Source: Nannocystales bacterium (GTDB lineage Bacteria > Myxococcota_A > Polyangia > Nannocystales > Nannocystaceae). From it: a stretch of DNA of 64,000 bases. How positions within the stretch are numbered: position 1 is the stretch's first letter; each line of letters starts with the position of its first letter. This document shows positions 6,003 through 17,411 of this stretch, in pieces. Made by a program: the position numbers and the translations under genes. The stretch spans positions 254,725 through 318,724 of the forward strand of contig JBOEGF010000043.1 in NCBI GenBank assembly GCA_050633305.1. Reading direction: 5' to 3'. Below the pieces are notes generated by a model, which saw only the letters and a program-made list of their open reading frames with translations, did not search any database and had not been told where the DNA came from.

Positions 6003-6809
6003 ATGAAGAGTCTCGTCATTGCCAGCCAAAAGGGAGGGGTGGGGAAGACGACGGTGTCGCTCAACCTCGCCTACGCGTTCGCTCGGGCGGGATACCGGAC
6101 GGTTCTTGTCGACACTGATCCCCAAGGGGCAATCGGGCTGTCGCTCTCGAAGTCTCTGACGACGCGGCTTGGCCTCGCGGACTACGTTGCCGGGGAAACC
6201 ACCGTGGATGACGCGTTGGTCGCGACCAAGGTCGACGGCTTCTCGATCATCCCGGTCGGTACGGTCGCGCCGCTCGAAACGCAGAGCTTTGGCGCAGCCA
6301 TGGCGGACGGAAGCCGACTACGGGGGCTGTTTGACGCCCTCGGCTCGCGTTTCGACCTGGCCTTGGTGGACACACCGTGTGGGTTCGGCGGCATCACCGC
6401 CGGCGCGCTCCGAGCTTGCTCGCATGCCGTCTCGCCGATTCAAGCGGAGCCAATCTCACTGCGCTCGGTGATGCAGCTGCTGGAGATGGTCAAGGCCCTG
6501 GGCGCGGAGGGGGAAGTCGCCGGTGTCGTCGGATTCTTGCTGAGCATGCTTCAAACGGACGACGAGGCGTCGCTTCAAGTTGCGCGGGATGTCTGGGAGA
6601 TGTTCCCGCGCGAACTCTTGTTCGACGTCAGTGTCCCGCGCGATGGCGTGTTCCTCGAGGCGACCGCTGCGGGCGTCCCGGTGGGCCTGCTGCGCCGGCC
6701 TGCTCCCCCTGTCACCCACGTTTTCGACTTGGTCGCGTCCGAACTGGCGCGACGAATGGAACTGGATACCGCGAGGATGGTCGATGGCCCACAGTCACTC
6801 CTGGATTGA
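6003..6809 (+). CDS. ParA/MinD/Soj-family ATPase
   Basis: Deviant Walker A QKGGVGKTT, DTDPQG, Walker B LVDTP; start taken at MKSLVIAS. No parB adjacent. Confidence 0.9.
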   Translation: MKSLVIASQKGGVGKTTVSLNLAYAFARAGYRTVLVDTDPQGAIGLSLSKSLTTRLGLADYVAGETTVDDALVATKVDGFSIIPVGTVAPLETQSFGAAMADGSRLRGLFDALGSRFDLALVDTPCGFGGITAGALRACSHAVSPIQAEPISLRSVMQLLEMVKALGAEGEVAGVVGFLLSMLQTDDEASLQVARDVWEMFPRELLFDVSVPRDGVFLEATAAGVPVGLLRRPAPPVTHVFDLVASELARRMELDTARMVDGPQSLLD

Positions 6810-7458
6810 TCTCGACACGCTGCGGGCATTGGTCAAGGACACGGCGTACCGCCCGTTGGCTGGCGACGAGCTGCCAGGCGCCATGACGGATCGGTCTGCG
6901 CTGCTCGAGACGAGTTCGCCCCCACGTCCCCCCGAGCGTTCGGCGCCTGCCGAGCCCACCCTCGATCGTACGCCGACTCCCTCGCGGCCCGTGGGGTCGG
7001 TCCGACGTGCGACACGGCCGACGCTGCCGAACCCCGACCTCGGTCCGCCGGGGTCGCCACCACCGGTTCGCGCATCGATGCTCGACCCGTTTCTCCCCAC
7101 CCCCGGTCGCTTGGAGTCCCGCCTCGAGCAGCTCATGGTCTGGGCGTGCAAGGTGACCGGGCTGGCCCGGGCCTATGTCGCCGACTCCGACGGTCTGCTC
7201 GTCGCATCCCTCAACGCTGGCGCGAACGCGGTGGATGACGCCGCCGCTGCGGTCGATCTCTGTTCCCGGTCCGTACCCGCGGACATTGGGGGGGCGGACG
7301 CAGGCTCCATAACCATGGTGGCTTCGGAGCGAACGCATGTGATCGCTTGGGATCTCACGCGTCACGGGCGGACGTACCTGGCTCTGTCCGGGACCGTCGA
7401 ACCAACGTCCGAAGCCCTCTCCACTCTTTCCCGCGCTCTCCGTGACGCGCTTCGCTAA
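6784..7458 (+). CDS. Protein with Pro-rich linker and C-terminal Roadblock/LC7 (MglB-like) domain
   Basis: ATG at 6784 (MAHSHSWIDL) overlaps the parA end. C-terminal TGLARAYVADSDGLLVAS resembles the Roadblock G..(A)..V..DGL..A pattern. Confidence 0.6.
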   Translation: MAHSHSWIDLDTLRALVKDTAYRPLAGDELPGAMTDRSALLETSSPPRPPERSAPAEPTLDRTPTPSRPVGSVRRATRPTLPNPDLGPPGSPPPVRASMLDPFLPTPGRLESRLEQLMVWACKVTGLARAYVADSDGLLVASLNAGANAVDDAAAAVDLCSRSVPADIGGADAGSITMVASERTHVIAWDLTRHGRTYLALSGTVEPTSEALSTLSRALRDALR

Positions 7459-7471
7459 ACGAGACTTGACC

Positions 7472-8182
7472 ATGACGAATCCTGAGTTCGCCGCGCTGGT
7501 TCGCACCATCGAGCCGTTGCGCGCATGCTTCATCATCGAAGCGAGCAGTGGTGCACTGCACCGCGAGTTCCGTAGGGGCGCCCTTACCGTTGAGCCCGAC
7601 GTGGTTGCGCGTGCTGTCGCCGGGTTGGCCCGGGCGCAAACTGAGCTCGTGGGTTCCTCCGAGCCTGCCACCCTCACCACGCTGGAATGGCCGGGGGTGA
7701 CGTTGATCGTTCGGTCGGTTTCAGCCTCCGCGCTCGTGGTGTTCTTCTTCGACGCCGAAATGTCGCTTGGGCTTGCCCGCATGCACATCACCAACGTGCT
7801 CGACCAACTCGACTCACACCTTCCGGTGGCGCACGCGACCACGGTCCGCGAGATGCCTGCGGTCCCTGCATCGCTGGCCTACTCGACGCCAGAGCCAGAG
7901 CCGGCGATCGAAAGGCCGCAACCTGCTGCAGCGCCAGCGCCAGCGCCCGAGCCGACTGCGACCGATGAGTTGCCGGCTCCGGGAGGCTCGAGGGCAGGAA
8001 AACTCCTGGGTTATCTCGATGACAACGCGCCCGACACCCACGCGGCGCTCCTTCGAGTGTCGCTGCAAACGGGTTTGCCGCTCTCCCTTCTCAAGACTCC
8101 CGAACGCCTCTCTGGGGAGGAATTCGATCAGGTCACCGCATCCGTCCGCCGAATCCTTGGCGTCGAACAACTCCCGCTTTGA
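7472..8182 (+). CDS. Hypothetical protein: Roadblock/longin-like N-domain, Pro/Ala linker, small helical C-domain
   Basis: PLRACFIIEASSG...TLIVRSVSASALVVFFFDAEMSLGLARM has the strand/helix order and LG..R ending typical of Roadblock folds. Confidence 0.55.
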   Translation: MTNPEFAALVRTIEPLRACFIIEASSGALHREFRRGALTVEPDVVARAVAGLARAQTELVGSSEPATLTTLEWPGVTLIVRSVSASALVVFFFDAEMSLGLARMHITNVLDQLDSHLPVAHATTVREMPAVPASLAYSTPEPEPAIERPQPAAAPAPAPEPTATDELPAPGGSRAGKLLGYLDDNAPDTHAALLRVSLQTGLPLSLLKTPERLSGEEFDQVTASVRRILGVEQLPL

Positions 8183-8196
8183 GGAAGACCTGAGCG

Positions 8197-9456
8197 ATGA
8201 CAAATACGATTGATTCGGCTCGGCTCCACGTGCCCGAGCATCAGTTCGACTTCCTCGCTGGGAGTCCCGTGGTGGTGCACTGCCACCACTTCAACCTGTT
8301 TTGGGACCAAACGATGGACGACGCGCTCGGCGAAGAGGTCGGCCGTCGGGTTCGGACCCATGCCGCGCACAAGTCCAGCTACAAGTTCCTTCGTGGCTTG
8401 GTCGACGAGGTGGGCGCAACGTCGCCGGTCGAACGACTGCGCCTCGCCGCGACGGTGTTCTCCGCCATGGGGCACGGCAAGTTGCACCTCGCGGTCGGTC
8501 GCAGCGGCGGACTCGTGCGGGGAGAGCAGCTTCACTATGGGTTCGGGTGGGGCGAAAAATACGGAGGACGCCTGTCTCGAAGCCACCCCGCGGATGCGTT
8601 CGCGACGGGGTTCAGCGCGGCGGCCACCGAGGTCGCGTACAACCTGGACCCGGGAACGCGGCGCGCGACCGAAGAGCGATGCATCGTCGATGGGAGCGCC
8701 GGATGCAGCATCCGGGTGTCCGGTGCCGACGCTGAGCCGATCCTCCCTCTCGGGGTGGATCCGCAGTCCGCGAAGGAGGTCCTGCCGCCCTCGTTCGACG
8801 GGATGTACGAAGATCAGATCGCACCGATCGTCTCGGGGCTTCGGGAGTTCCTCTCGGGAGTCGCGGGGGACAACCGCGGCGTGATCGAAGCGTTCGGCGT
8901 GCTGGTCACTGCGCACTTGGCCGACTACTACAACCACGCTGCGAACGACGTCCTGGACATCATCGCAGAGGAAAAGCCCGCAGGCGTGCAAGCGTTCCGG
9001 GCCCTGTTGTTGGAGGCTGGGACGGCCTGCGCGTTCCATACGTTCGGCGGGGTGTTGGCCTCTCCGGAATGGGAAGGGCTGGTCGGCCCTCCGACGGGGG
9101 ACCCGCTCGAGGTCGTCATCGGATGTGCTGCACTGGCGCGTGCGCTTGGCTTTGGCCGTTGGGCGATCGAAGAGTTCGAACCCGAAACACGGCTCGTCAT
9201 GACGAGCCCTGGGACCTACGAGTCGGTCTTCTCGCGGCTGATCTCCGCCAACGCGGCGGAGGGCCCCGGAGGCATCTTCGTCGGCGCTGGAATCGGGATC
9301 ATGCAGCTCGCACACGGCGTCAACTGGCAGCCGCGGGCCAACATCGATGGCAAGCTCTATCTTGATCTCGCGAGGAGCAATCCGTGGGTCGTGACTCAGG
9401 AAAGCTCGTTTGCGGCGGGGGACGTTCTCGATCGGATCGTGGTGACCCGTCGATGA
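8197..9456 (+). CDS. Tandem V4R-like (4-vinyl reductase/Bet3 fold) domain protein
   Basis: Two internally similar halves, with SAMGHGKL and ALGFGRW. Domain 1 has VVHCHHFN and ends in EERC...G...C; GAGGA RBS upstream. Confidence 0.7.
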   Translation: MTNTIDSARLHVPEHQFDFLAGSPVVVHCHHFNLFWDQTMDDALGEEVGRRVRTHAAHKSSYKFLRGLVDEVGATSPVERLRLAATVFSAMGHGKLHLAVGRSGGLVRGEQLHYGFGWGEKYGGRLSRSHPADAFATGFSAAATEVAYNLDPGTRRATEERCIVDGSAGCSIRVSGADAEPILPLGVDPQSAKEVLPPSFDGMYEDQIAPIVSGLREFLSGVAGDNRGVIEAFGVLVTAHLADYYNHAANDVLDIIAEEKPAGVQAFRALLLEAGTACAFHTFGGVLASPEWEGLVGPPTGDPLEVVIGCAALARALGFGRWAIEEFEPETRLVMTSPGTYESVFSRLISANAAEGPGGIFVGAGIGIMQLAHGVNWQPRANIDGKLYLDLARSNPWVVTQESSFAAGDVLDRIVVTRR

Positions 9457-9791
9457 GTCTTGCCCTGGGATTCGCGCGTGACGTTGGCTGTCGGGCCGAC
9501 TTGTTGTGGCGCTGCGATTTGGTGGACGGGACGCAAACCGCCGCATGGGTTGCGCTCGCTACTGCAGCGGGGTTCTCGTCGGTCCCCGGTTCCTCGCGTC
9601 TGGGCGTTGCGGTGTTGGAAGAGCCCGGGTCGGGTCATCGCATCGTTGCCGTGTTGCGGACCGGGCGTCTGCAGATCCGGTTGGACGCCATGACGCCGAA
9701 ACCGACGCGTGTGCTGCAAGCACGGCGGCTCTTCGATCGACTCCGCGCCCTTGAGGCGCCCGTGGACAGCCCGCAGCTGGAGGCCCCATGA
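9453..9791 (+). CDS. Small hypothetical protein (112 aa)
   Basis: ATGA overlaps with both neighbours; MSLALGFARDVGCRADLLWRC. Confidence 0.65.
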   Translation: MSLALGFARDVGCRADLLWRCDLVDGTQTAAWVALATAAGFSSVPGSSRLGVAVLEEPGSGHRIVAVLRTGRLQIRLDAMTPKPTRVLQARRLFDRLRALEAPVDSPQLEAP

Positions 9792-10894
9792 GCATGAAAG
9801 TGTTGCTGGTCGACTCGGACCTCGCGCTGCTTCGCACGATGCGTGGTGCCGCCGCGGCGGAAGGCGGGACCATCGAGCTGCTGACCGCGCAGACCTGGGA
9901 TGCCGCGTTGGAGCTGCTCACGATCGTCGAGCCCGCGTTGGTGGTGGGTGCCGTCGAGCGGACGACCGCGCCTGAGTTGTCCTCGCTCGTTCAGCTGCAG
10001 CGGCGGGGGCTCGCCGTGGCGGCGTTCGGACCCGACGTGCCCGAGTTGGTCCGGGTCGCGGCTGCCGCAGGCGTGGCGGAGTACATCTGCAAGCCGATCA
10101 GCAGCGCCGCGTTTTTTGTTCGACTCCAGCGACTGATCCGGGCTGCGGCCACAAGCAGCAAGGCTGGACTCACCGGGTTTGCGCTGGCGGACCTGCTTCA
10201 GCTGGTGTCGATGTCCCGCCAGAACATGACGCTGCGAGTTCGTAGCGGCGACAAAGCGGGCGAACTCGTCGTGGCTGAGGGGATGCTCGTGCATGCCGAG
10301 GCTGGGGAGCAACGCGGACTCGAAGCTGCGGTCGCGGTACTCGATTGGCCCAACAGTGAAGTGTCCTCCAGTCCCGAGGTCCCCGCGAAGGCATCGTGGA
10401 CGACGGACGTTCCCTTGATGGAGCTCCTCGTCGATGCCGCTCGGCTGCGGGACGAGAAGCACCGGGACGATGCGAACCGCCAAGTTGAGCAGCTCGTGTC
10501 CGAAGCCCTCGAGCTTCCCGGTGTGGTTGCCGCGGCGCTCATTCATGTGGCCTCGCGGACCGAGGTCCACGGGGATGGTGCGGTCGGCAACGGTCGGACC
10601 CTCGGTCTGGGTTTGGTTCTCGACGCGCTCGCGCTTGGAGACGAGCGGGGGCAGGGGGAGCAGCCGCTGGAGATCCAGTTTTCGCTGGGCTCGTGCGACG
10701 TGCTCGGTTGTGCGGTTGGCGCGACCGGTGTGGTGATGGTGGTCTGGACCGATGCCGGGGAGCTTCGCTCGGGCACCCAGCTTGCGCTGCGACGAGCGCG
10801 CGAGCGCGACGCCGAACAAACGGCGACAGCATTTTCGACGGTGGGGATCGACCTCGTCGACCACGACGTCGACGACGACTTCCGGTTGGAATAG
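9788..10894 (+). CDS. Atypical receiver domain + DUF4388 (PATAN-like) + C-terminal Roadblock-like domain
   Basis: KVLLVDSD and EYICKP receiver motifs, but PALVVGA at the phospho-Asp position. LADLLQLVSMSRQ..TL.V....G.L....G..VHA...G..A...L.W is the DUF4388 pattern; LPGVVAAALI starts the last domain. Confidence 0.8.
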   Translation: MSMKVLLVDSDLALLRTMRGAAAAEGGTIELLTAQTWDAALELLTIVEPALVVGAVERTTAPELSSLVQLQRRGLAVAAFGPDVPELVRVAAAAGVAEYICKPISSAAFFVRLQRLIRAAATSSKAGLTGFALADLLQLVSMSRQNMTLRVRSGDKAGELVVAEGMLVHAEAGEQRGLEAAVAVLDWPNSEVSSSPEVPAKASWTTDVPLMELLVDAARLRDEKHRDDANRQVEQLVSEALELPGVVAAALIHVASRTEVHGDGAVGNGRTLGLGLVLDALALGDERGQGEQPLEIQFSLGSCDVLGCAVGATGVVMVVWTDAGELRSGTQLALRRARERDAEQTATAFSTVGIDLVDHDVDDDFRLE

Positions 10895-11141
10895 ACGCCC
10901 GCGTTCGCCGCGGGCGGCCCGCTGGCCGTCCCGCGGGAGCCCAGGAGCCCAGGAAAGGGGCCCGCGGGACCCCGGAAGCCGTGGTTACGGCCGAGGGCAA
11001 CCCCGGGTGGGGGCCGCACGGTGGGACTGCACAAATGGGGCCCCTGCCAGAGCGCGCTCGCGGGGTCCAGTTTTTTGGCGGGCACGGTCCAGATGCGTAG
11101 CTTGGCCGCGGGAAGCGTCCGCTCGGCGATCCCTCGGTCCC

Positions 11142-14189: not shown

Positions 14190-15263
14190 TCAACTCTCGC
14201 GCTTGGGCTCGCGCAGCAGTCGTTCGCGCACGCGCTGGTACTGGCGGCGCTTGTAGTTGCTGTGCGAGCTCTCGCCCTCTTCGTTGGCATCGCGACGGGC
14301 GAGGTCGACGACCTGAAACTCCGCGAGCACGAACACGACGTTGCCTTTGCCTTCGGGCAGTTCGTCGTAGAGGTCGTCCATTCGCACCGGGAGGTCGGCC
14401 ACGAAGTTGAGGATCTGGTAGCCGCGCCCCGAGAACTCGTTGGCGAGGCCGGTCAGGGGGACCGTCGGAAGCGCGGAAAAATCTCGGGCCCGGCTGACTT
14501 TGCGCTCGATGGAGACCGCGTCGACCAGGGTGTTGACCGTCTGGGCGGGCACGACGAAGTTGAACGGAATGAACCGCTGCAGCATCACGTGCAGGGTTGG
14601 GATGATGTCGCGGGGGCGGTCGACGACCACCCGGAACCGGAGTCGGTCGAAAACCCGCGCAGCACTGGACTCCCGCTTCACCAGGAGTTTGGTGATCAGC
14701 GAATCCTGGGTCTTTCGTGACCACGCGAACTCCTTGACCGGAACGCCCGCGGAGACCAACTCGTCAAACAGCGTGACGACGCTCTGCTCGACGTGGGCGT
14801 ACAGCGCGTTGTCTGCGATGGGCAGCAACAGACGAAGCTCGCGCGCATCGAGGTGATAGATGATGTGCATCACCTTCAACAGCGTGCACGCCTCGCGGCG
14901 ATGTTTGCCGCGAGTCGAGGCCATGAGGAAGACTTCCTCGATGGTGGCTTCGATGCCGACAGCCTCGCTCAGTCGCAGACCGAGTGTCTCGCGGATGTAG
15001 GTCAGCGACCGGGCGCGGACGTCCTCGGCGCGCTCGCGGTCGGCGGGAACGCTGGGGTCGATGCCATTGACCTTGAGGAGGCGCGTGACATCGCCTTCAT
15101 CCCGCAGGCCGAGACGGTGCCAATCGATGACCGAGTCTCCGCGCAGCAGCAGCCGGATTTCGTGGACCTCCTGCAGGGAGAGACGGGCCAAGGCGGAGGC
15201 GAAGGGCTGCGTCGGTCCGGGAAGGAAGACGCGAGGTTCTGCCGGTGGTGGGCGCTCTGCCAT
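14190..15263 (-). CDS. TIGR04552-like myxobacterial protein, RelA/SpoT-like nucleotidyltransferase fold
   Basis: GDSVIDWHRL, RKTQDSLITKLLVK, DRLRFRVV, EFQVVD, SSHSNYK. Confidence 0.75.
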   Translation of the reverse strand: MAERPPPAEPRVFLPGPTQPFASALARLSLQEVHEIRLLLRGDSVIDWHRLGLRDEGDVTRLLKVNGIDPSVPADRERAEDVRARSLTYIRETLGLRLSEAVGIEATIEEVFLMASTRGKHRREACTLLKVMHIIYHLDARELRLLLPIADNALYAHVEQSVVTLFDELVSAGVPVKEFAWSRKTQDSLITKLLVKRESSAARVFDRLRFRVVVDRPRDIIPTLHVMLQRFIPFNFVVPAQTVNTLVDAVSIERKVSRARDFSALPTVPLTGLANEFSGRGYQILNFVADLPVRMDDLYDELPEGKGNVVFVLAEFQVVDLARRDANEEGESSHSNYKRRQYQRVRERLLREPKRES

Positions 15264-16700: not shown

Positions 16701-17411
16701 ATGATGCGCGGCTCCACCTTGTCCAGCACCTCGACCCCGACCCTCACCTCCGGAGATCGCTCAATGCGGCCCATGCTCACCGACCGTCAGCGCCAAGCGC
16801 TCGACTACATCGCCGAGTGTCTCGATGTCCGAGGATACCCACCCACCCTTCGCGAGATCGGTGAACACATGGGCATCCGTTCAACCAACGGCGTCAACGA
16901 CCACCTCAAGGCACTTGAGCGCAAAGGTTACCTCCTTCGCGAGGAACTCAAGAGCCGAGCGCTCCGCCCGATCGACTACGGCAGCAGCGCCAACAAGGAG
17001 AAGCGCGACGACTCGCTCGAGATCAACATCATCGGTCGCGTGGCCGCTGGTGAGCCGATCCTCGCCGAGGAGAACGTCGTCGACAAGGTGGTCGTCGATC
17101 GCCAGTTCCTTGGCGCCGTCGCGCAGCGTGAGGTCTTCGGCCTTGTCGTGCGTGGCGAGTCGATGATCGAAGACGGCATCTTCGACGGGGACTACATCTT
17201 CGTCCGTAAGCAGAGCACCGCCGAGACCGGCGAGATCGTCGTCGTGATGGTCGAGGGCGAGGCCACCTGCAAGCGGTTCTACCCCGAAGGTGACCGCGTT
17301 CGTCTGCAGCCCGCCAACGAGACGATGTCTCCGATCTACGTCGACCGCACCGAGTTCCGCGCCGTCGACATCCTCGGCAAGGTCTGCGGCGTCTATCGCC
17401 GCGTGCACTAG
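16701..17411 (+). CDS. lexA: SOS repressor LexA
   Basis: [27 protein letters not shown] cleavage site, V.GESM catalytic Ser, TCKR Lys. Alternative start at 16764. Confidence 0.97.

Follow-up and report, generated by a model that had tools for sequence, protein, structure and literature searches.

Which enzyme does a Roadblock module serve when no Ras-like GTPase is encoded beside it? To our knowledge, nearly all Roadblock proteins of known role regulate Ras-like GTPases or dynein, and the question is raised by a locus of a Nannocystales bacterium (assembly GCA_050633305.1; genome G000, 11.0 Mb, 92% complete). The locus occupies positions 6003-10894 of a 64,000-nucleotide stretch of contig JBOEGF010000043.1 (positions 254,725 to 318,724), and this whole stretch is referred to as the window. 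Its six co-oriented genes, here called A to F, encode a ParA ATPase, two Roadblock-type proteins (C, and probably B), a tandem-V4R protein, a small Cys-bearing protein and a DUF4388 protein. We propose tentatively, at close to an even chance, that they form a cytoplasmic signalling cassette, a Roadblock/PATAN module with the ParA ATPase as its NTPase. The more specific idea, in which B and C regulate the cycle of this SIMIBI-class ATPase instead of a Ras-like GTPase, while the V4R protein and E supply a new metal- or ligand-sensing input, seems to us plausible and a little less assured. The cassette is probably an uncharacterised cellular switch or positioning device. Its features are as follows.

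6003-6809, forward strand: gene A, ParA, 268 aa
6784-7458, forward strand: gene B, 224 aa
6784-6837, forward strand: dual-coded A/B junction and N-terminal amphipathic helix of B, overlap register identical across loci
7472-8182, forward strand: gene C, 236 aa
Gene C, about residues 1-120, forward strand: Roadblock domain, MglB-like, with R54/E58 at the MglB A64/G68 positions
7988-8179, forward strand: helical C-domain of C, 63 residues, highly conserved, following a Pro/Ala linker
8197-9456, forward strand: gene D, 419 aa
9453-9791, forward strand: gene E, 112 aa
9788-10894, forward strand: gene F, 368 aa
Gene F, residues 128-224, forward strand: DUF4388/PATAN domain (Pfam 5.5e-15, 55.9 bits against a cut-off of 25)

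A conserved gene order around a ParA ATPase

The six genes are confirmed as real and conserved. All six open reading frames (ORFs) have coding-type GC3 values of 0.72-0.79, and the core order, namely ParA, Roadblock B, Roadblock C, tandem-V4R D and small protein E, is kept across families, which rules out a chance gene cluster. The genes are tightly joined, with a 26-bp overlap between A and B, gaps of 13 bp (B/C) and 14 bp (C/D), and ATGA overlaps at 9453 and 9788, in agreement with a preliminary description of the window. For B, C, D and E, single-sequence searches of Pfam, NCBIfam and PDB returned no significant family, and the assignments given below for B, C and D come only from family profiles or structure models.

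A profile of C was run at 1e-10 against a class-level sample of 400 genomes, a stricter first look, so that the count is a lower bound. At least 32 genomes matched; one of them (G090) holds a plain Roadblock protein, leaving 31 genomes from four families, all within one myxobacterial class. All seven strong C matches (7/7) in a 401-genome sample of the phylum fell inside the same class, and named homologues come from Haliangium, Kofleriaceae, Polyangiaceae, Sandaracinaceae and one record labelled Acidobacteria. The genomes gave 32 loci, with the window included and the duplicates L097, L098 and L100 dropped. Specifically, D follows C in 32/32 loci, a B gene stands ahead of C at E<1e-3 in 30/31 informative loci (the remaining one, L095, is weak at E 0.02), ParA precedes B in 24/26 informative loci, and E, the usual gene downstream of D, follows it in 28/31. 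A DUF4388 gene, detected by its own profile or by Pfam, flanks the cassette in 18/32 loci, and a TPR gene stands upstream in its place in five further ones.

Neither of the usual companions is encoded nearby. We found MglA in 0/62 loci (phmmer with the genome's MglA, plus a P-loop pattern) and ParB in 0/62 loci (the genome's own ParB as query); a second MglA-like query gave one marginal match (E 0.008), a short opposite-strand ORF of L082 without a P-loop, which was not counted. Elsewhere in the genome, contig C15 carries mglBA, C11 another MglA-like gene and C32 a canonical parAB pair. We rejected both a chromosome partition locus and a classic mglBA locus. The ParA without parB that had been read from the window alone is thus upheld, and the survey of V4R gene neighbourhoods proposed at that time reveals a conserved linkage to ParA and two Roadblock genes.

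Gene A encodes a ParA (Pfam AAA_31, 8e-25) whose nearest solved structures are Soj. It bears the deviant Walker A motif with its signature Lys, the DxD sensor and the Walker B Asp of ParA/Soj ATPases; in the window copy, Walker A (K10, K15), D37/D39/Q41 and the Walker B D123 are intact. Among 23 ParAs (the window copy and 22 others taken from the genomes; the L005 copy, which is frameshifted, and four copies from metagenomes were excluded), K10, T16, D39 and D123 are invariant (23/23), while K15, D37, Q41 and E149 are each kept in 22/23. Additionally, a short hydrophobic C-terminal tail is conserved and specific to the operon ParA family. The ParA tree leaves its base unsettled; monophyly of the operon ParAs is not established, because the genome's other ParA/MinD proteins join through long branches.

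The operon has an exbB/exbD pair on one side and an ftsB-like gene on the other, with a GAF-GGDEF gene coming after the latter; both the exbB/exbD and the ftsB-like genes share the strand of the operon. The hairpin at 10897-10915, once taken to close the operon, does exist as a 7-bp stem; however, it has no U-tract, is no better than shuffled sequence (z -1.35) and is absent from the terminator listing of the window, which holds no terminator for the 3' end. Since no promoter-like site was found for the operon either, its ends are estimated from gene spacing. Further along the window, we labelled by eye a LexA-like repressor ORF (16701-17411, forward strand) and an ORF resembling the RelA/SpoT-like nucleotidyltransferase family (14190-15263, reverse strand).

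The Roadblock-type proteins and the junction with ParA

The N-terminal domain of C has, by profile comparison, the Roadblock fold and is most similar to MglB and MglC. Its profile matches MglB 6izw at E 2e-4, and also MglC, CvnB5 and the dynein Roadblock protein. As described in the available part of PMC3199381, the MglB substitution A64/G68R (Thermus A68/72R) weakens MglA binding tenfold and impairs GAP activity. R54 and E58 of C align to exactly these residues in the register of the E 2e-4 profile alignment. The A64 position is Arg in 29/32 loci and Ala in 0/32, and the G68 position is Gly in 0/32, so that the two-helix face of C presents Arg and acidic or amide side chains at points where small residues are required in MglB; the alignment of B to these positions is not reliable, and the count covers C only. 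Because of this Arg-for-Ala pattern, the face of C looks built for a partner other than MglA, with the register taken from the E 2e-4 alignment.

The C-domain of C is the most conserved piece that we measured (mean identity 0.52). Structurally it resembles helical domains of the helix-turn-helix (HTH) and H-NOX types, as well as a hypothetical protein from cyanobacteria; the similarity to HTH folds (TM ~0.6-0.7) lies below the naming bar of the tool, and no named family matched. The top look-alike in the Atlas is a 203-aa cyanobacterial cluster (TM 0.85). Together with a tandem-V4R homologue from Thermosynechococcus, this look-alike raises the thought that a C-D module may extend to cyanobacteria; plasmid searches with a cyanobacterial D homologue and with a C homologue gave no match.

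Protein B begins with a conserved helix, continues with a Pro-rich linker that varies between copies and ends in a divergent domain of probable Roadblock type (about 7087-7455). The sole PDB match of its family profile is the Robl_LC7 structure 7f8f (E 0.004), and Pfam Roadblock was matched by 3/24 B members (best E 0.057). The C-domain of B is thus probably a Roadblock fold, on weaker sequence evidence than for C. Profile-profile comparisons of B with C, and of the C-domains of B or F with the genome's own Roadblock protein, were uninformative (probability at most 4%). Two Roadblock-like proteins had been predicted at the outset; the prediction is good for C and only probable for B.

The coupling of A and B is unusually strict. 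The ParA stop codon overlaps the N-terminal motif of B in a single register in 28/29 rows, or 25/26 distinct loci once L097, L098 and L058 are dropped as duplicates or near-duplicates, and this register stays fixed despite B proteins being only ~20-25% identical across families. The N-terminal amphipathic helix of B is a candidate ParA-docking peptide. We modelled full-length B with a ParA dimer, ATP and Mg, as had been suggested for the pairs of this operon. The ipSAE was 0.36 (runs 0.36, 0.63 and 0.34), with a run agreement of at least 28% and a partner pLDDT of at least 61, against 0.00 for the best of three controls. In our calibration, the mark is reached by 116/157 solved complexes and 2/215 mismatches; the score counts as a weak pass, since the range up to 0.60 holds only 18 of the passing solved complexes plus both passing mismatches. 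The model thus weakly suggests that B may bind the ATP-bound ParA dimer.

A tandem-V4R protein, its small partner and the variable gene F

D is a tandem V4R protein of the MopR/PoxR/Bet3 fold. Its model contains two V4R repeats (pLDDT 96) and is matched by Foldseek to MopR, PoxR, MJ1460 and TRAPPC3; Pfam V4R was found in 64/88 D homologues, and a profile of the N-terminal half detects the C-terminal half in 72/88. The double V4R-like protein first seen in the translation is therefore verified. His28, Cys29, His30 and His31 are each kept in 69-75% of the 88 homologues, and of the V4R-type pair Cys162/Cys170, Cys162 is kept in 87%. D is a putative ligand or metal sensor. Two of the tandem-V4R homologues, P0050 and P0471, are named from Thermosynechococcus and Spirochaetaceae.

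E is a compact 112-aa alpha/beta protein folding at pLDDT 91, with a TBP/KA1/helix-grip-like arrangement and the invariant residues Cys13, Arg72, Gln74 and Arg76. No clear structural family emerged: the best match (Z 7.9, rmsd 2.9, 84 aligned) is within the background range, Foldseek returned none at E<=0.001, and the Atlas matches stayed below 0.9.

D also occurs outside the operon. A quick version of the D tree places the operon-linked copies in one group (36 rows, SH-aLRT 100) apart from 15 solo copies. By eye, a small Cys-bearing ORF directly follows D in 14/15 of the solo loci (L041-L055); these ORFs are not matched by the E profile, and their relationship to E is our inference. An adjacent co-oriented kinase, PAS-STAS or PAS-SpoIIE gene is present at 9/15 solo loci (14 of 21 candidate neighbour ORFs were scanned). 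A place beside kinase or phosphatase genes is typical of stand-alone sensors, and we consider D with an E-like partner a candidate portable sensor pair that has not been described. The same genome holds a second, solo tandem-V4R gene (G000:C2:173227-174474), followed by a small Cys protein and then by a gene like the PAS-Hpt-HATPase of L046. At L050, a class-V, cysteine-desulfurase-like aminotransferase gene (9108-10334, reverse strand) lies directly upstream of a solo D-E-kinase locus, a neighbour hinting that the His/Cys motifs may be involved in sulfur or Fe-S chemistry.

F is a variable accessory gene: the conserved unit comprises five genes, and F fills a variable slot. The variable slots of the loci contain receivers, kinases, DUF4388 and TPR proteins. 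Its receiver carries Ala55 at the phospho-Asp position, which is non-Asp throughout this genus and intact in L062, L069 and L082-L084; the L069 copy adds a histidine kinase. The pseudo-receiver and DUF4388 domains originally assigned to F are thus retained, while its C-terminal alpha/beta domain, first assigned as Roadblock-like, gave no Roadblock match with a 13-sequence profile.

Other loci vary further. All five loci L036-L040, of a subgroup in which ParA is lost or degrading, have an extra gene after E (for example L039:9688-10221); the L039 product is beta-rich with a TPR-like tail and no Pfam match, and may replace ParA or F. Downstream of E in L087-L093 (for example L091:10393-11654), several loci add a small protein that is Roadblock-like by eye, and several also a divergent DUF4388-like protein with weak Pfam matches. 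L072 (G320) is a second, divergent copy of the cassette within a single genome, whose B has no N-terminal motif, whose D has a very long branch and which has no E; its ParA retains the pattern of the first DNA-binding Arg region and the tail. Two more clusters of the source genome deserve mention. One (G000:C8:51298-53959), a second GTPase-less Roadblock cluster, has a Roadblock gene, a coiled-coil-Roadblock-like gene and a third gene, which we take to encode a metallo-beta-lactamase-fold oxygen-binding protein, with no MglA-type GTPase seen nearby; in the other (G000:C18:514493-516675), a receiver-DUF4388 gene overlaps a Roadblock-containing gene, again with no GTPase seen nearby.

Proposed mechanism, rival explanations and known systems

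These elements suggest the following chain. D, with its partner E, would sense a small ligand or a metal/redox state, and would couple to C, probably through the C-domain of C. Such coupling is suggested by gene order, by one 613-aa record (P0287) that is a natural in-frame C-D fusion, and by distance covariation, which is highest between the Roadblock domain of C and D (0.72, 16 loci), while the top value of B is with A (0.51). B and C would pair with each other as Roadblock proteins not acting on MglA. B, most likely by its N-terminal helix, would contact the ATP-bound ParA dimer, a contact at which the complex model weakly hints, and would gate the ATPase cycle of ParA. By analogy, the nucleotide state of ParA could control the assembly or polar placement of the DUF4388/PATAN output protein, which in some lineages may also be under phosphorelay control. 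Least certain of all the steps is the cellular output, for which a motility or polarity behaviour is the likeliest candidate.

Several observations weigh against this chain. The tail of ParA and the N-terminal motif of B share coding bases, so that conservation of one may drive that of the other, and only the part of the B helix beyond the overlap counts as independent evidence. The ParA-B score (0.36) is weak and comes without a reported interface, and the C-D fusion is a single record that could be an assembly error. ParA itself can be missing: L038 and L040 run straight from the upstream gene to B, the genomes G052, G058 and G021 (92-96% complete) have only Soj-level matches (E ~1e-37, where a true orthologue reaches 1e-97), and in L039 the sole ParA left in the ParA-losing subgroup is degenerate (K15R, long branch). 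B-C-D-E therefore persists without an NTPase. Additionally, two genomes of the same genus as the window (G001 and G004; L005 and L099) have lost both E and F, and D is missing from one metagenome contig (L061). Given the losses of ParA, E and F, the cassette is modular, with B-C-D as its obligate core. The D and ParA trees have three subgroups in common, two of which mix host families; this fits movement as a cassette, although related loci are not independent. The earlier proposal that ParA replaces the small GTPase thus keeps its footing in the linkage, in the lack of MglA nearby and in a C face unlike that of MglB, and is held back by the weak score of the binding model, by the 2/26 loci without ParA and by the MglA available in trans.

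Among the alternatives, the one that survives best, though we think it rather unlikely, is that ParA is an optional positioner, as in chemotaxis clusters or carboxysomes, with B as its cargo adaptor and B-C-D-E(-F) signalling without it. The contacts would be those proposed above, and the role of ParA would be limited to placing or spacing the sensor cluster. This accounts for the loss or decay of ParA in one subgroup; the peptide-linker-domain layout of B and the A/B coupling fit an adaptor, and the weak A-B model fits it equally well. ParA is also nearest to Soj, in which two Arg residues (R189/R218) serve non-specific DNA binding, according to the accessible part of PMC3778016. When these positions are transferred through the genome's own Soj, the first Arg is retained in 17/23 ParAs and a basic pair at 231-232 is conserved and specific to the operon family; this leaves room for nucleoid binding and likewise counts against our proposal. 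However, the second Arg is missing in 23/23, both positions are non-basic in the window copy (D186, V216), and inspection found no MinD-type C-terminal amphipathic helix in the operon ParA. The positioner also leaves unexplained why the adaptor should be a Roadblock protein, a fold tied to NTPase regulation.

We regard as improbable a second alternative, that B and C are MglC-like accessory Roadblocks feeding the V4R signal to an MglA/MglB/RomR system encoded elsewhere, with ParA secondary. Both mglBA and a further MglA-like gene do exist in this genome, MglB and MglC are the proteins closest to C, ParA can be lost, and PATAN genes adjoin some MglA systems, as noted in the consulted portion of PMC4316618. 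The substituted face of C, in the E 2e-4 alignment, speaks against MglA and is silent on binding of MglB or RomR; the cassette is moreover patchy (31/400 genomes) and strongly linked to ParA, a pattern at odds with such a role.

Still less credit can be given to a ParA-based conflict or immunity system of the type proposed by Li, Burroughs and Aravind, whose ParAs are linked to V4R, wHTH and profilin/longin domains, and in which the HTH-like C-domain of C would bind invader DNA. The patchy distribution, trees not following host family and the resemblance to HTH, itself below the naming bar, are in keeping with it, and the available text of bioRxiv 10.64898/2026.10.19.760177 links V4R and longin-like domains to immune ParAs. 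Yet no nuclease, NADase or other effector occurs in the variable slots among 30 flanking ORFs scanned (a chosen subset), PADLOC matched the ParA P-loop only, and the Walker A Lys, which the ConB2 conflict clade replaces by its marker Arg, is kept in 22/23 (exception L039), with Gln after DxD. An enzymatic or cofactor unit, with D-E as a metal/sulfur enzyme and ParA as a metallochaperone-like ATPase, is hardly credible: the His-Cys-His-His motif and Cys of D, the invariant Cys of E and the aminotransferase gene preceding the one solo locus would suit it, whereas the other neighbours of D are signalling genes and ParA is Soj-like, not Mrp/HypB-like.

A cassette with ParA in the NTPase slot, which we continue to prefer, offers a concrete alternative Roadblock partner. 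This is relevant to the 328 MglB homologues without linked MglA counted in a 2014 survey, which in its available part also reports PATAN linked to some MglA systems (PMC4316618). The tandem-V4R protein with its small Cys partner is a candidate sensor that recurs beside kinases and phosphatases. Haliangium ochraceum DSM 14365, a cultured strain, carries an orthologous ParA (P0358), and in vivo work may be feasible there if the rest of the operon is present. If the proposal is true, bacteria would possess a complete switch that drives an ATPase and is made from the folds found in eukaryotic TRAPP and Ragulator (Bet3-like and Roadblock). Where it stands alone, the D-E sensor would then act on histidine kinases as well.

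Known systems share parts of this design. Like MglA/MglB (with MglC and RomR) of Myxococcus xanthus and Thermus thermophilus, the cassette has Roadblock proteins from paired genes, and like PATAN-linked MglA/MglB neighbourhoods it has a PATAN/DUF4388 regulator nearby, receiver domains and Pro-rich linkers. Unlike them, it has a ParA ATPase in place of the Ras-like GTPase, a substituted MglA-binding face on C, extra conserved modules on B and C, and a built-in tandem V4R with a small Cys protein. The actinobacterial conservons (CvnA kinase, CvnB Roadblock, CvnC, CvnD GTPase) are likewise self-contained sensor-Roadblock-NTPase operons, but a membrane kinase and a Ras-like GTPase stand where the cassette has a soluble V4R pair and ParA. 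ParC/ParP, PpfA, McdAB and PomXYZ, which we take to be orphan cargo-positioning ParA systems, similarly combine a Soj-like ParA without ParB and a partner with an N-terminal peptide and a disordered linker; here, in contrast, the proposed partner is of the Roadblock type, the neighbourhood lacks genes for chemoreceptors or microcompartments, and some or all of the Arg residues for DNA binding are lost. D shares the fold of MopR/PoxR/DmpR, MJ1460 and TRAPPC3/Bet3 (TM 0.73 to MopR and PoxR over ~183 columns) and keeps V4R-type Cys residues in its first repeat, yet its tandem repeat stands alone with no AAA+ activator attached, is only 10-14% identical to the known sensors and adds the His-Cys-His-His motif. 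The relation of V4R to Bet3 is treated in PMC10933270 and PMC2253512, as far as their available parts go.

The closest precedent is the PriB1 displacement case. According to one sentence of an October 2026 preprint (bioRxiv 10.64898/2026.10.19.760177; section 12, Fig. 2B panel 16), MglA has been displaced by PriB1 ParA domains in certain MglA-MglB systems. As in the cassette, a PriB1-like ParA with Gln after DxD is linked there to genes resembling mglB in the absence of MglA, and the arrangement is interpreted as a switch. By comparison of text only, the accessible passages name no V4R, E or C-domain, and the lead residue of Walker A is Ser here, not the Asn of PriB1; the preprint's case may or may not include this clade. 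We found no paper combining V4R, Roadblock and ParA, nor one joining Haliangium with ParA and Roadblock, and no listed paper was recognisable as dealing with such a gene set, in a search that left most subscription journals outside. The first impression that no described system has this composition thus persists, while the idea of ParA standing in for MglA is not wholly new, being already present in the preprint. Together, the cassette works like an MglB/PATAN NTPase module and yet is not an MglA/MglB system, with neither the GTPase nor the A64/G68 surface. New here are the fixed register of the A/B overlap, the Arg on the two-helix face of C and the candidate role of D-E as a portable sensor.

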